DNA of 64,000 nt, taken from NCBI GenBank assembly GCA_046317875.1, contig JBKCVN010000013.1, positions 3,627 through 67,626 of the forward strand, written 5' to 3'. The position numbers were made by a program, and so were the translations under genes. This DNA is from Alphaproteobacteria bacterium. Its GTDB lineage: Bacteria > Pseudomonadota > Alphaproteobacteria > UBA7879 > UBA5542. The notes below the pieces were generated by a model. That model did no database searches. It was not told the DNA's origin and saw nothing but the letters and a program-made list of their open reading frames with translations. This document shows, in pieces, positions 49,846-55,233 of the stretch (the first letter of the stretch is position 1; the number at the start of each line of letters is the position of its first letter).

Positions 49846-50793
49846 ATGTTTCAAAAAACAATAAAACAGAATGTCTCCATCACAGGGGTTGGTGCACACT
49901 CTGGCATTGAAACAAAAATTTCCTTGATCCCTGCCCCTGAAAATCATGGCATTGTTTTTAAAAGAACAGATCTTACCTCAAAAAACATCATTCCGGCTTT
50001 GTGGAGTTACGTTACGGATACAAGATTGTGCACCACCATCTCTAATATAAGTAATGTCTCTGTTTCTACAATCGAGCATCTAATGGCCGCCCTATCTGCG
50101 ATGGAAATAGATAACCTTTTGATTGAAATTAATGGTGCCGAAGTTCCTATTTTGGATGGAAGTGCCCATCCTTATCTTTCCATTCTGGAAAACATTGGAA
50201 CAACCACTCAAAATGAAAAGAAATCCTATTTAAAAATTCTGAAGCCCATATCCGTTAAACAAGGTGAATCTTGGGCTCAAATAAAACCAGCTCAAGATGG
50301 TTTTTCTCTTCATTATACCTTTAGAAATCGCTCTACTAATGCTTTTGAAAGATATACTTCACAGGATGCGCTAAAGGATTTTAAAAACCATTTGGCTCCT
50401 GCACGTACCTTTGGATTTTTGGAAGATGTGGAAAAATTATATGCGGCGGGTCTAGCCAAAGGCAGTTCTTTAGAAAACGCAGTTGTCTTTGATGAAGGTA
50501 AGGTTCTTAATCCAGAAGGTCTGCGTTTTGATAATGAATGTGCCCGTCATAAGGCTCTAGATGTAATTGGTGATCTGTTCTTAGCAGGAATACCTATTAT
50601 TGGACATTTCGAAGGATATTGCTCGGGCCATTCTTTAAATAATATGTTGCTTGAAGCGCTGCTAAAGGATAGGTCAGCATGGTCCATCATTACTAAAGAT
50701 CCCCCAGCTTCTCATCCTCATCATCCAGGGCCATACCAGAGGCATCAGAATATTTCTTTAAATGAGAAGCCCTTAAGATTTGGGACCTTTTAA
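49846..50793 (+). CDS. lpxC: UDP-3-O-acyl-N-acetylglucosamine deacetylase
   Basis: 315 aa. N-terminal TIKQNVSITGVGAHSG. LpxC zinc-site His/Asp residues present. Confidence 0.85.
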   Translation: MFQKTIKQNVSITGVGAHSGIETKISLIPAPENHGIVFKRTDLTSKNIIPALWSYVTDTRLCTTISNISNVSVSTIEHLMAALSAMEIDNLLIEINGAEVPILDGSAHPYLSILENIGTTTQNEKKSYLKILKPISVKQGESWAQIKPAQDGFSLHYTFRNRSTNAFERYTSQDALKDFKNHLAPARTFGFLEDVEKLYAAGLAKGSSLENAVVFDEGKVLNPEGLRFDNECARHKALDVIGDLFLAGIPIIGHFEGYCSGHSLNNMLLEALLKDRSAWSIITKDPPASHPHHPGPYQRHQNISLNEKPLRFGTF

Positions 50794-53700
50794 CCTATTA
50801 GTCGGGATACAATATTTCCCAACCCTCTCTTCGCCTCATTGCGAATCACAAATCCAATCCCTTCTTCGACTTTAATTTTGGCTCTGGGAAAACGATCAAT
50901 ATAATCTCGTTTAGACAGGGTATCGCTATTAACAAAATCGCCCACATTTTCTGATACAGCCATATCATAAGAAACAACCCCACCATCCTCATCTTCAATT
51001 CTCTCATTTTTTTCATCATCTCCAAAGGAATCCCACCACCCTTCTTTTTTTGTCACGGGCACACCTATGGCATTAGCATTATTTCGGGCTTGAAAATAGT
51101 CTCGTTTTGCCCGATTAACTTGGATACGGGCCTTAATAATTTTTTCTAAGTCTTCTGTTTTTTCTGCTTCTCTAAAATTTTCTTCAGCGCGTTTTAATGC
51201 ATTTTGGGCACGTCTTAATACTTTTATATTCTGTTTGGTGATTTGGCCCGGGCGTTTATCCACCACCCTTGCTGCCTGTTTAATTTTATAAATTTGACCA
51301 GAAGGTGTTCTATCTATTTGCCACACCGAGGCTCCCATAGGCAATGGCTGTGCCACAGGAGCCCCTAGTTGCTGACCAAATAGATCATTTGCATTAAAGG
51401 GATTTGTACCATCATCGAAGGATGAACCAGAGAATACATTGGTATCAAAAGAAGGATTATAACTAGTAGCATCAAGGGAGGGAGTATCAAAACGGGTATT
51501 ATTAAACGAGGAATCTGAAAAAGAGGGGTTCCCATAGACCTCTCCTCCAAACTGTGTGTTCAGGTCAAAACCAGATGTAGATCCTCCCGTTCCTGAAAAA
51601 GGATCCCCACCCATGGGATTAAAAGATGAGTCATTAAAATTATCAAAACCAGCACCCATCATATCTTGATTATCATATTCATCATCTTGCCCTTGATACT
51701 GACCATCATTGTTTAAATCCAGGTCTTCCAATTCTAATTCATTATCGAGTGGGGTAACCTGGCTCTCTAATGCCTGTTTCTTCATTTGAACAAGCTGTTC
51801 TCTTCCCTCGGTGAGATTATCTTGAGTTTCAGCAATTTCCATAGCTAATCGTTCAGCTTTATCACGATCATTTTCTTTAATCGCCCTAGCAAGTTCAGCC
51901 TGTTGAAGGGGAAGCTTATCCTCTGCATTTTGGATACTCTGCTCCATATCCCCTATTATTTGAGTTTTTTCTTTTGCTTCACGAATGCGCTGCTGATGTG
52001 CTGTTTCAGTTTTATATAAAGCCTTTTTATACTCGCCCTCTTTTTGCAGCATATTATTTTTAGATTGGTCTAATTCAAATTGATACTGCTGTAATTTTTT
52101 CTTAGCCTCCTCAATTGCCGCCACATCATTCCCTGCTTCTGCTTTTTTCAAAGCTTCTTTGGCATCATTAACTTGCTTTTGCTTATCCTGGTATACTTTT
52201 TGCGAGCTCTCATAAGCTGCTTGAGCTGTTTTGCAAGTTTCAATATCTTGCTCAGCTTTCTCCAAATCCTTCCGAGCAAGCCTATGGTTGTCTTGGGCTG
52301 ATTCCAATTGTTGTCCGATACGATTTAACTCTTGGGTTGCTTGCAACTTCTCACGCGACAAACGATCTACTTCAGCCTTATTACCAGAAGCTTGCGCCGC
52401 CACAATTTGTTTCTCTAGCGTATTAATTTTTGATTGAGTTTCATTTTTTTTCTGTTCTAAGGCTTGAAGCTCGGAAGATGCCTTAGCCGCCTTACGTTGA
52501 GCATATTCTTGCTTAGACTCAACTTTCGAAAGAGAATAATCTTCTACGGCCTCGACAACTGCCATTTTTTGTTGCGATTCTTTAACAATGTCGCCAGTCA
52601 TTTTTATTTTTTCTTCCGTCGCCACCACCACAGCTTCAGCTTTTTGGATTTCCACAGGATCCTTAGACGTGGCTTTAATTTGTGCCAAAGCTTCCTTGGC
52701 TTTTTCCCCTTCTTCCTTGGCAGCCATGTGGGCTTGTTCAGCACTTGCAACCGCAGCCTTCGCCTGTTCTTTTTCGGCCACTGCTTCAGCCGCCTGACGT
52801 TTGGCTGTTTCTTCAAAAGTCTCGCTTTTTGCCAAAGCTGTATTTGCCTTCTTTTGCGCTTTTTTCGCTTGGTTCTGGCTATCCTTTAGTTCTTTCAGGG
52901 CCCTTGCTTCTTCTTTTTTGGCGTCTGCTAATCTCTTTTGGGCATCCGCTTTCTCCTGGGGGGTCCCCACCTTAGCTACAGCTAAATCAGCTTGGGCATC
53001 CAGCACCTTCTGCCGTGCGTTAGCATGGTTATTTTCTGCAGCAGATAAACGTGTTTTGGCTTTTTCGTGCTGGTCCTTGGCATCTGCAAGGGCTGCTGCT
53101 GCCTTTTCTTTCTCGGCCGCAGCTTTTAGGGCTTTCCTTTCGTCAGCTGTCTGGGTTAAGGCTTTCTTATTTTCTGCTTTACGGGCAGCCTTCGCCGAAT
53201 TTTTTTTGGCTTTTTTCAAATTGGCTTCTGCTTTTTTCTTATCAGCCTCGGCTTTTTTAATTAATGCTGGATCTTTCTTATCCTTAGCGTCTTGTAGGTT
53301 TTTCTCTGCGTTCGTTAATTTTGTGGCGGCCTCATTTTCAGTATTTTTTGCTGTTTTGGCTTCTTGAGCCGCTTCTTCGGCTTGCTTTTGTGTTTTATTG
53401 GCTTTTTGCAATTCTTTTTCTGCCTCTTTGGCTTTTTGAAGCTGATCTTCTTTAATCTTTGCGGCAGCCACACGTTCTGCGCGTGCTTCTTCTTTTGCCT
53501 TTTCAGCGGCGGCAATTGCTTCCTTGTTCTGGGGATTTTCTGCCCTTAACTTCTGAAGCTCTTCATCTGCTTTTTCTTGCTTTTTTTTGGCCTCAGCTTC
53601 TTGTTTTTCCCCAGCCTTTATTCCCTTTTCTGCATTTTCTTTTTTTTCTTCTGCTGCTTTCTGAGCCGATGATTTCTCAGGGGGTTGTGCAACTTCATGG

Positions 53701-53930: not shown

Positions 53931-55233
53931 CTCTGGGGTCTGGTTGATTTTGAATATTTTGCCATTGGGCTTTACGGTCGTCTATTTGTTTACCAACGGC
54001 GTTCAAAATATTATCTGTTCTTAATGAATTAGCATTTCCACCCCGGGCAACAGGCCTGGGATTAGGGGCAGGATTTGCCCTCACAGAAGCTGACCTTGAC
54101 CCCAAAGAAGGCAACGGAGGAGCGGCAGGTATAATTCTGCCGCTCTCTGGGGATATTGATTCAGGCCGAGCAGTTGGTGAAGATGAGTTTAACCAATCTT
54201 CTGGGGGTGGAGGCAATGCATCAAAATTTGGCGCGGAGGATGAATTGGCAGGTGTCGTAGCCTTCGCATTTGCTTGAGCTCGAAACTCTTTAACCAAACG
54301 GCGATCTTCTTCCCCTAATTGATCCCAGACTATATATTTATTTTTCAAATATGTATCTAGCATGCGACCTCGGCGTGCTTGAACCATCGATGCCAAATTC
54401 ACTGCGTCAGAACCAGAGGCTTGGCGCATTTGGGTGGGCCGCACGGTAGTTGATCGGGCAAATGAAGATTTAATAACACCAGAAGAAAGCCCAGGCTGAG
54501 CTGCCTGATTCATTAAATTAATATCTTGAGTTGTTAATTGAGAAGAATCAAGCCGACCCTCATTAATCCGACGAGCCAAAGTTTCAGATCGTTCCCCCAT
54601 CATATTTTCATTCCTAGTCGGAACAGAAGATGGCGCAGCATACTGGGCCTGACTAGCCAGAGCATTATTTCTCTGAACCGTCAGCCCTGCACCAGACCCT
54701 GCTGGAACAAAATTTTGGGATGTCATAGTAGGTGCCAAAGACATGGCCCCAGACATCTGGTTAGTTTCATTCGTCATCAGCGAGGTGCCAGGACCTTGAA
54801 CTAATCCTCGATTATACCGTTCTTGAAAATCTAATCTACTTTTCAGTTCTTGTGTAATTTGAGCCACTGCTGAGGACAGTGTTTTCTTAAGTTTGGAGTT
54901 ATTATTTTTCCGATAAACAGCTGTTAAATAAGCGCGAAGACGCATTAAGGAATTTAAATTTACCTCGTCAAGCTCGCGCCGTTTATGAAGATTATTAATA
55001 AGAATGGCAGACTCTTGGGCTAGCCGTTCTATGGTCGGATAAGAATCTTTGGGAAGGACAGATGTGGACAAATCAAATTCTACGCTGGCAGGCGTTAATT
55101 TTTGATTTTTCCGGGAACGCATATTTTGGGGGGATACCTTGATATTGGCAGGAAACCCTACCCCGGACAATCCACTATCTACCCATAGTACGAATGCAAT
55201 AAGAACAGCAGATACCTTAAGAATATAGATCAT
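53887..55233 (-). CDS. Signal-anchored low-complexity S/T/Q/N/P-rich protein with proline-rich segment (hypothetical)
   Basis: 448 aa. N-terminal hydrophobic anchor or signal peptide (ILKVSAVLIAFVLWV). Long disordered region. PPPPEDW and PAAPPLPSL motifs near the C-terminus. Overlaps the downstream coiled-coil gene by 44 nt, consistent with translational coupling. Confidence 0.5.
   Translation of the reverse strand: MIYILKVSAVLIAFVLWVDSGLSGVGFPANIKVSPQNMRSRKNQKLTPASVEFDLSTSVLPKDSYPTIERLAQESAILINNLHKRRELDEVNLNSLMRLRAYLTAVYRKNNNSKLKKTLSSAVAQITQELKSRLDFQERYNRGLVQGPGTSLMTNETNQMSGAMSLAPTMTSQNFVPAGSGAGLTVQRNNALASQAQYAAPSSVPTRNENMMGERSETLARRINEGRLDSSQLTTQDINLMNQAAQPGLSSGVIKSSFARSTTVRPTQMRQASGSDAVNLASMVQARRGRMLDTYLKNKYIVWDQLGEEDRRLVKEFRAQANAKATTPANSSSAPNFDALPPPPEDWLNSSSPTARPESISPESGRIIPAAPPLPSLGSRSASVRANPAPNPRPVARGGNANSLRTDNILNAVGKQIDDRKAQWQNIQNQPDPRDAMQGASDAEWENS

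Follow-up and report, generated by a model that had tools for sequence, protein, structure and literature searches.

A two-gene module of Holosporaceae-like alphaproteobacteria encodes a predicted exported rod protein and a motif-rich partner, a candidate for host engagement

Holosporales have been described as living in obligate association with eukaryotes (PMC11909080), and in Holospora periplasmic proteins bearing signal peptides become exposed, or are released, when the bacterium invades, among them an 89-kDa protein with actin-binding motifs (PMC9866348, PMC5911502). The order is a large and ancient group of obligate protist symbionts whose infection molecules are almost unknown, a few being named by molecular weight only. 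The general kind is nevertheless already known: obligate symbionts export lineage-specific repeat proteins, and motif mimicry has a bacterial example in Brucella NpeA (PMC11253601). The tripeptide Asn-Pro-Phe (NPF) is a known ligand of EH domains, the known receptors being eukaryotic (PMC12808100, PMC3570524). Here we analyze a 64,000-nucleotide (nt) stretch of contig JBKCVN010000013.1 (the window), from the metagenome-assembled genome (MAG) GCA_046317875.1 of an Alphaproteobacteria bacterium, which carries between lpxC and tRNA-Met two minus-strand genes, here called the small and the big gene. We read this pair, tentatively and at slightly under an even chance, as an exported bipartite scaffold that would show eukaryote-type short linear motifs to a protist host; it is a lineage-specific module of Holosporaceae-like, probably protist-associated alphaproteobacteria. 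The locus is laid out as follows.

49846 to 50793, plus strand: lpxC, one flank of the pair
50790 to 53879, minus strand: big gene, open reading frame (ORF) from the conserved start, 1029 amino acids (aa) plus stop
50790 to 53930, minus strand: longest version of the big ORF, 1046 aa
53887 to 55233, minus strand: small gene, ORF of 448 aa plus stop
55496 to 55572, plus strand: tRNA-Met, the other flank of the pair

Both ORFs are real genes under purifying selection. Computed against the closest orthologous locus (L008; handles beginning with L denote loci and those beginning with P small-family proteins), the ratio of nonsynonymous to synonymous substitution rates (dN/dS) comes to 0.16 in the big gene and 0.36 in the small one, compared with 0.09 in lpxC and yidC; within the big gene it ranges from 0.02 to 0.23 along the region encoding a helical rod and is 0.06 in the C-terminal domain. 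The NCBI MAG protein ACK5PQ_01880, which is annotated 'Alphaproteobacteria bacterium', has the same sequence as the small protein. Four homologues of the latter are close to moderate in similarity (34-84% identity), and only 15 members of its family turned up when 1.84 billion representative proteins were searched exhaustively by profile. Directly downstream of every small-family gene with a readable flank, across 12 lineages, stands a big-family gene, at a spacing of -4 to +52 nt and coding, in the orthologues, for 1019-1198 aa. An initial interpretation of this DNA, made without database searches (the sequence-only reading), had proposed a two-gene module with no housekeeping counterpart, and the recurrence of small-then-big in all 12 lineages under purifying selection bears this out. 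Moreover, two small-family members, P0013 (677 aa) and P0016 (707 aa), have the N-terminal domain of the family (N-domain) fused to a long coiled-coil region, and their genes are likewise trailed by a big-family gene; by a rosetta-stone type of argument, these fusions suggest that the products of both genes work together.

The order rplU/rpmA, tRNA-Met, pair, lpxC, engB, yidC, or as much of it as the contig reaches, is kept in eight lineages; the contigs of two further lineages are too short to reveal the neighbors, and in three (L091, L097, L094) the genomic contexts are unrelated. Between lineages that keep the pair at the rpmA/tRNA-Met-lpxC locus, YidC, EngB and LpxC are 57-79% identical, whereas the big protein is 38-52% and the small protein 35-44% identical (against L006, 67-77% for LpxC, YidC and EngB, 52% for the big and 44% for the small protein). 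The pair therefore evolves faster than the neighboring genes. The interval from rpmA to tRNA-Met, immediately upstream of the pair, differs in content between lineages: in the window it holds an orphan 126-aa ORF (55711-56091, minus strand) with no Pfam or PHROGs match, in L001 a 335-aa eukaryotic-type tyrosine phosphatase (8565-9572, Y_phosphatase) with a signal-peptide-like N-terminus, in L004 a DUF4410 protein (8489-9627) and another orphan, and in L095 nothing. It looks like a small hot spot of accessory, possibly host-directed, genes beside a tRNA. Near the P0016 pair there is a Fic-domain protein (L094 5780-7276), and near the P0011 pair a leucine-rich-repeat protein (L091 17004-18206), both domain types being in common use by intracellular bacteria against their hosts.

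Judged from its sequence relatives, the family is at home in Holosporaceae-like alphaproteobacteria whose genomes measure about 1 Mb. One annotated member, UNM05952.1 of a 'Holosporaceae bacterium', is encoded on a complete chromosome that carries the NCBI label Holosporaceae (CP060261.1, 1,017,199 bp) and whose EngB, YidC and L21 are 64-65% identical to their window counterparts. The locus is present there (L098), but both pair genes and lpxC are split by frameshifts, the pair into about seven ORFs and lpxC into two (10001-15529), P0014 and P0017 being two fragments of one small-family gene; either assembly indel errors or a decaying region would account for the splits. A genome search based on LpxC gave best matches of 41-47% identity (Midichloriaceae, Holosporaceae and uncultured Alphaproteobacteria), and two loci from it, L011 and L013, have no pair downstream of lpxC. 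In L013, from the Holosporaceae bacterium UBA7879, a different, 753-aa protein (1043-3304, plus strand) directly follows lpxC. This protein combines a signal peptide and an A/K/E coiled region with PPPLPP/PPPRPP repeats, further repeats that contain Cys, a strongly acidic stretch of D/E/G and a terminal NPFG, and two paralogous predicted outer-membrane-type proteins of about 570 aa come after it. Despite the same neighborhood and a similar style of composition, it has no profile similarity to the big family. Big-family proteins, 1029-1151 aa long and highly biased in composition, are absent from a 15-billion-protein collection, although their genes are called on contigs, which is why a homologue search with the big C-terminal domain came back empty; searches that rely on that collection miss the big family. 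For the same domain, a pattern scan of species-representative genomes gave no confirmed match, and one of metagenomes (JGI) gave only the already known L001 lineage.

Both protein families, and the C-terminal domain with them, are undescribed in every library searched. Scans of Pfam, NCBIfam and PHROGs with both proteins, their segments and eight orthologous C-terminal domains returned nothing above noise, phage proteins included. PDB profile searches with the small family (alignment A1), the C-terminal domain (A3, A6) and the tail of the small protein (A4, A7) gave chance-level matches only (E > 0.2).

The gene boundaries were revised by comparison with orthologues. That the two minus-strand ORFs lie between lpxC and tRNA-Met, and that the big gene's stop overlaps the lpxC stop, was seen correctly in the sequence-only reading: the two genes are convergent and have 4 nt in common (50790-50793), both stop codons included. 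It had further taken a 44-nt overlap between the small gene and the 1046-aa big ORF as a sign of translational coupling. The length holds for the longest ORF, but in L004 and L095 the upstream extension is stopped or out of frame and the big gene begins at an MK codon 6-9 nt past the small-gene stop, so the overlap is a longest-ORF artefact. In the window, the small-gene TAA (53887-53889) is followed by 7 nt (tcgctcc) and then by ATG 53879 AAA ATA AAA, which opens MKIKRSF... and gives an N-terminus of "textbook" signal-peptide layout; we infer that this ATG, equivalent to the orthologue starts, is the true start and that the big protein has 1029 aa. An apparent 'MQSGKIL' likeness in L006 and L008 is an alternative-frame shadow of the invariant small-protein tail ...DAEWENS*. 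Since the genes are tightly juxtaposed across the 7-nt gap, coupled translation is still possible. Promoter and terminator scans around the pair stayed at chance level.

The big protein, numbered from the conserved start, has the following parts.

53817 to 53879, minus strand, aa 1-21: predicted signal peptide MKIKRSFVCFFIAVTFLCSYA, with a K/R n-region, a 17-residue uncharged core and a site between S-Y-A and N
53748 to 53810, minus strand, aa 24-44: conserved post-signal segment EEDGYLEILESDSVLSKEMKK, with invariant D26, Y28, S36, L38 and E41
51780 to 53669, minus strand, aa ~71-700: helical rod of six ~94-residue A/K/E-rich helical repeats
51663 to 51749, minus strand, aa 711-739: acidic spacer LDNELELEDLDLNNDGQYQGQDDEYDNQD, D/E-rich and there in all orthologues
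51369 to 51656, minus strand, aa 742-837: P-x(0-1)-F low-complexity array (FNPMGGDPFSG, NPSF twice, TNPFNANDLFG)
50793 to 51326, minus strand, aa 852-1029: novel C-terminal domain, a basic helical hairpin followed by a GWWDSFG...GGVVSYD..VSENVGDF...PR block

The most telling part is the array, whose common denominator across the family is a Pro, zero or one residue, and a Phe. The window array has one NPF and one DPF, and two [ND]PF motifs are more than expected by shuffling (p = 0.017). In L004 and L006 the array is a pentapeptide repeat, [ND]P.F[SG], with 12 and 8 copies (P-x-F, 12 and 9), and in L001 the pattern is [STG]P.F[GS]; counted as [NDS]PxF, the pentapeptide repeats of these three loci number 12-14 copies. 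L091 and L097 each have ten perfect NPF motifs and one DPF set in G/Q-rich spacers, and L095 and L098 have two NPF each. Across the big family there are 26 NPF, while the other arrangements of these three residues appear 0-5 times each, and NPF recurs in partner-family proteins (four copies in P0011, two in P0015). With its one NPF in this low-complexity region, the window protein has the kind of motif that an EH ligand would have.

The C-terminal domain (~178 residues) is the most conserved part of the big protein, with a mean column identity of 75% in five lineages and 56% in eight; searches of PDB sequences with profiles of it gave no match. The sequence-only reading had recognized both the F/N/D/S/G-rich linker and a novel C-terminal domain; both are there, the domain measuring about 180 aa and matching no library. 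A single-sequence AlphaFold2 (AF2) model of the domain has a predicted local distance difference test score (pLDDT) of 50, and only the helical hairpin is confident. The extreme C-termini of big-family proteins are not conserved and mostly non-aromatic (...SRLIG, ...NKKRA, ...KART; L001 ...ALNRF).

At the other end, the proposed signal peptide of the big protein was well founded: n-region, core and processing site are as listed above, and equivalent segments can be read from the sequence in all eight orthologues. A conserved EDGY...S.LSKEM segment follows, its motif duplicated in L096. Residues 22-720 are rich in A (19%), K (17%), E (15%) and Q (9%), so the K/A/E/Q composition claimed for a ~650-residue helix stands. 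Its heptad-like character does not: over residues ~70-380 the hydrophobics I/L/M/F/V/W/Y make up only 8-12%, far from the ~2/7 of a classical coiled coil, and no 3.5-residue periodicity appears, while the C-terminal half of the rod has a weak 3.6-3.67 periodicity, by a home-made measure rather than a dedicated coiled-coil predictor. An hhalign self-comparison of the rod gives off-diagonal matches at shifts of ~70, 190, 290 and 385 residues, with E-values that compositional bias may have inflated, and conserved turn motifs lie at aa 115, 202, 305, 406, 498 and 583 (in order NPQNKEAI, KDPALI, GTPQEKA, KDPVEI, SGNKAEV and GNDVAAI). From these self-matches and the turn-motif spacing we divide the rod into six repeats of ~94 residues; BLAST self-comparison of the big protein finds no internal repeats. 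L001, L004 and L006 have ~85 extra residues between turn motifs 2 and 3, roughly one more repeat, and in L091 and L097 the rod is uncharged and A/Q/T-rich instead of A/K/E-rich. A highly conserved QKEGEYKKALYKTE block stands between rod and acidic spacer. The window has a strong AT skew at 52001-54000 (-0.43 on the plus strand), which is due to the A-rich Lys/Glu/Ala/Gln codons of the minus-strand rod, and spurious long plus-strand ORFs (e.g., 52801-53367) are shadows of the same codon bias.

The small protein combines the following elements.

55162 to 55233, minus strand, aa 1-24: signal-peptide-like N-terminus MIYILKVSAVLIAFVLWVDSGLSG, with a 12-residue uncharged core, then small-residue sites
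54799 to 55083, minus strand, aa 51-145: N-domain, ...PTIERLAQE.AILINNL.KRRELDEVN..SL.R.R.YL.AVYR...
54505 to 54594, minus strand, aa 214-243: helix-loop-helix copy 1, ..TLARRINEGRLDSSQLTTQDINLMNQ (AF2 helices 208-224 and 235-244)
54280 to 54378, minus strand, aa 286-318: helix-loop-helix copy 2, ARRGRMLDTYLKNKYIVWDQLGEEDRRLVKEFR (AF2 helices 275-297 and 308-326)
54190 to 54216, minus strand, aa 340-348: LPPPPEDWL motif, LPPPP being invariant in alignment A1
54103 to 54129, minus strand, aa 369-377: second proline stretch PAAPPLPSL (PPPPPPPLP in orthologues)
53944 to 54024, minus strand, aa 404-430: amphipathic helix LRTDNILNAVGKQIDDRKAQWQNIQNQ (AF2 helix 402-428, pLDDT ~70)
53890 to 53943, minus strand, aa 431-448: acidic Trp tail PDPRDAMQGASDAEWENS, conserved across aligned lineages

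The small protein had been called signal-anchored. Its uncharged core is only 12 residues long and is followed by small-residue sites of cleavage type, a layout common to all full-length members of the family, and the N-terminus thus reads as a cleavable-type signal peptide rather than a ~20-residue anchor. The AF2 model, built on a five-sequence alignment, is mostly disordered with discrete helices (mean pLDDT 51), and a Foldseek search with it against the PDB gives nothing at E <= 0.001, the top match being a generic three-helix MIT domain. The N-domain is the only universal element of the family and the stretch that is matched in all distant relatives; in alignments A1 and A5 no block is better conserved, and it is duplicated in tandem in P0011, P0012 and P0015, is modeled as three helices (pLDDT 55-67) and has no match in Pfam, PDB or Foldseek. 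The helix-loop-helix motif (~30 residues, R.R.LL.L...G.ID..QL...D..LV..Y) occurs in 1-3 copies per family member, and copy 2, with invariant RGR..L...L...YI..QL..ED, is the best-predicted part of the model (pLDDT 80-90). Its pattern is possibly SHOCT-like, on the strength of one weak match (E = 0.028, P0006). An assignment of the motif (ALLDLVESG...) to WH2 was rejected: there is no Pfam WH2 match, a basic LKKT is not conserved and AF2 gives a helical hairpin.

The two proline motifs that had been singled out, as PPPP and PPLP, are indeed present, within LPPPPEDWL and the second stretch. LPPPP[AE][DE]W[LI] is invariant in the aligned orthologues, and the variants LPPRPPELL and LPPLPPEML end P0006 and P0008; we take LPPPPEDWL to fit the pattern of EVH1 class-I ligands. 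The amphipathic helix (LRTDNIL..V..QID.R...) is conserved in the eight tail-bearing lineages. The tail itself runs ...RD.[MI]QGASD[AE]EWE[ND]S, its core R-D-x-[MI]-x-G-A-S-D-x-E-W being invariant in seven aligned lineages; a likeness to the colicin TolB box (GASDGSGW vs GASDAEWE) was dropped because the spacing differs. P0013 (L093 240-2273), a protein that bears a signal peptide, has an internal tail-like copy, AADEEWEDE, and directly after it, before the long coiled coil, residues 288-306 (IQRAFRKWMARKSF) match the Pfam IQ motif at 23.7 bits (gathering score 20.3 bits, E = 3.5e-5). At the gathering score, the IQ motif is in neither window protein.

Taken together, these elements suggest a mechanism in which both products would be exported by Sec and the small protein would dock on the big protein through its N-domain, as gene linkage and the N-domain fusions suggest. 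The complex would be kept in the periplasm or exposed at the surface and would reach the host during infection. There, as a multivalent scaffold, it would draw in endocytic and actin machinery through its short linear motifs: NPF/DPF would bind EH-domain or adaptor proteins, LPPPP and polyproline would bind EVH1, profilin or SH3 proteins, and the acidic Trp tail would bind Arp2/3-type or similar acidic-Trp receptors. The outcome may be the promotion of uptake, escape or intracellular trafficking. What points towards the host is that the lineage lives in obligate association with hosts, that NPF is specifically enriched and has expanded, and that one relative has an IQ motif; to this are added the faster evolution and module shuffling relative to neighboring genes, the tyrosine phosphatase, Fic and leucine-rich-repeat genes near relatives' loci, and the Holospora precedent. 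The earlier suggestion of an effector-like protein pair gains a Holosporaceae-like lineage, signal-like N-termini and freedom from known homology, while the host-interaction function itself is something we infer from motifs and phylogenetic distribution. The pair is in this sense a concrete candidate for how Holosporales engage host endocytic and actin machinery, and, if the host-facing reading is true, it would extend motif mimicry to NPF arrays. A more specific version, to our mind quite unlikely, makes the pair a mimic of the eukaryotic endocytic/actin adaptor network: a ~100-nm rod with an NPF/DPF array and a docked partner, the latter carrying EVH1/profilin-type polyproline, the acidic Trp tail and, in relatives, an IQ motif, would nucleate host endocytic or actin assemblies on the symbiont surface for uptake or trafficking.

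Several observations weigh against a host-facing role. The window protein has only the one NPF and one DPF, most of its remaining motifs being NPxF or SPxF, and the L001 array has no NPF. The tail is missing in P0005, P0006, P0008, P0011, P0012 and P0015, and we therefore treat the tail module as an optional add-on; Pfam WH2 and PDB profile searches give no link between tail and WASP family. The motifs are short and embedded in low-complexity sequence, and Gram-negative envelopes commonly contain periplasmic proteins rich in proline or in A/K/E, TonB and TolA among them. The pair is linked to no secretion system, outer-membrane anchor or β-barrel, which leaves no evident route across the outer membrane. 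The synteny is stable amid housekeeping envelope genes (lpxC, yidC), the strong constraint on the rod is equally to be expected of a structural envelope component, and host association is taken from the related lineage rather than from this MAG itself.

These points lead to the most serious alternative, which we consider somewhat unlikely: a lineage-specific periplasmic or envelope scaffold with no host role, of the same general sort as TolA, TonB or a periplasmic ruler or tether. In it the rod would bridge the periplasm or take up its space, the C-terminal domain and array would attach to a partner in the outer membrane or peptidoglycan, and the proline-rich protein would be an accessory. Such a scaffold, which if real would give reduced genomes a periplasm-spanning structure of a new kind, accords with signal peptides of Sec type that no other apparent secretion signal or machinery accompanies, with a composition like that of TolA domain II and the TonB proline spacer, with stable synteny beside lpxC, yidC and lipopolysaccharide (LPS) glycosyltransferase genes, with purifying selection along the rod, and with retention of the pair in ~1-Mb genomes, where dispensable genes tend to vanish. 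The known envelope systems, however, leave no trace here at permissive thresholds. There is no TolA domain III or family profile match in the full protein at E <= 1 or in the C-terminal domains of eight orthologues; no TonB C-terminal domain in the small protein, whole or in segments (Pfam and NCBIfam, E <= 10); no SPOR domain of FtsN type in either protein; no LysM or OmpA match; and no YadA_anchor or Autotransporter match in Pfam, the C-terminal domain being too small for a 12-strand barrel. The judgment of the sequence-only reading that the pair is unlike TolA is upheld: the Pfam and NCBIfam scans show no detectable homology to TolA, TonB, FtsN/SPOR, pilus or flagellar components. tolQR is absent from the 64-kb window, the neighbors of the pair being lpxC, engB, yidC, tRNA-Met and rpmA, and there is no exbBD near the pair. 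Where TolA has an uncleaved N-terminal anchor, the N-termini here look cleavable, of signal-peptide type with small-residue sites, and have no conserved His/Ser transmembrane motif. A 630-residue rod would, if fully helical, extend ~95 nm, far beyond a normal periplasm; in L091 and L097 the rod changes its character from A/K/E-rich to uncharged while the NPF arrays expand; and modules are gained, lost and fused, the IQ motif included, a pattern more typical of host-facing proteins.

Two other explanations also place the pair at the host. In one, which we find improbable, the small protein would be a RickA/WASP-like Arp2/3 nucleation-promoting factor and the big protein a stalk for its surface display. 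The order of elements matches the class-I layout (PMC3298513) and RickA (PMC2440523), with a proline-rich region (LPPPP, then PPLP) upstream of the C-terminal module, the helix at aa 404-430, about 20 residues, an acidic segment and an invariant Trp 4-5 residues from the C-terminus; P0017 has ..EIDRRIA.. at the position of the C-region RRxA-type motif, as in WAVE, and Holospora trafficking is cited as dependent on host actin (PMC5911502). Yet Pfam WH2 is not found at E <= 10 in the C-terminal segments of three lineages or in the helix-loop-helix segments, there is no LKKT/V, and tail profiles retrieve no WASP, WAVE or N-WASP chain from the PDB at E <= 10. The tail is just mildly acidic, with Arg, the module is lacking in about half of the family, and acidic-Trp motifs serve other receptors too, such as kinesin light chain and coat adaptors; RickA, furthermore, has no signal peptide (PMC2440523). 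Membership of the WASP/RickA class is thus not established, and a functional analogy alone is conceivable. The remaining explanation, very improbable in our estimate, has the array mimic cohesive FG-nucleoporin repeats or form a condensate, and so help the bacterium to enter the host nucleus or to anchor there, which would befit an endonuclear Holospora-like symbiont. The arrays are uncharged and G/Q/N/S/P-rich with regularly spaced Phe, FG occurs nine times in L001, six in L091 and five each in L097 and L006, and some Holosporaceae are intranuclear (PMC11909080, PMC9866348); but the motif is F-S rather than F-G in L004 and L006, the conserved feature is the Pro before the Phe and not a Gly after it, and there is no sign that the bacterium of the window MAG is endonuclear.

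Elsewhere in the window, a 448-aa ORF at the edge (66-1412, plus strand) has no Pfam or PHROGs match and is lineage-specific, and a 214-aa protein (1571-2215, minus strand) contains WG-containing β repeats (PF14903, E = 2e-16). At 8001-12000, over minus-strand NuoL/M/N-like genes, GC content is 0.34-0.37 and AT skew +0.28 to +0.31, a compositional effect of very hydrophobic membrane proteins and not an island. A match to the Rfam rpsB leader/sRNA family RF01815 (34416-34507, minus strand) lies just above the gathering score (42.7 vs 40 bits).

Returning to the closest described systems, whichever reading holds, the pair adds two protein families and a C-terminal domain, all of them new. Among the papers listed by our literature search on bacterial NPF-motif effectors, none described a bacterial NPF-array protein, and given that result the pair, if it is the mimic proposed above, may be the first. 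With TolA and TonB it has in common an N-terminal hydrophobic segment, a long A/K/E helix (as in TolA domain II) or a proline spacer (as in TonB), a small C-terminal domain and, presumably, a periplasmic location; it differs from them in domain content, partner genes and its cleavable-type N-termini, as set out above, and the big protein is about three times longer than TolA and has a repeat architecture and a Pro-Phe array. The 89-kDa invasion-tip protein and the 63-kDa PRP1 of Holospora obtusa come from the same broad group and are likewise lineage-specific proteins with signal peptides and little outside homology (PMC9866348, PMC5911502, PMC11909080); their descriptions mention neither a two-gene rod-plus-partner arrangement nor an NPF array. 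In RickA, alphaproteobacteria have a surface protein whose target is host actin (PMC2440523, PMC3298513, PMC9569871); unlike RickA and WASP, the small protein has no WH2 or LKKT and no profile similarity to them, and it has a signal peptide, a less acidic tail and a module that is optional. Eps15 and epsin resemble the pair in setting a long helical or coiled region beside a disordered DPF/NPF-type array (PMC12808100; PMC3570524), whereas the pair is bacterial, has Sec signals and shares with them neither sequence homology nor an EH, ENTH or UIM domain. Brucella NpeA, finally, is alphaproteobacterial and functions through a short motif that binds host actin regulators, but it is a substrate of type IV secretion and has just one motif that binds N-WASP (PMC11253601); the pair would instead combine Sec-type signals, multivalent motifs and two partner proteins.

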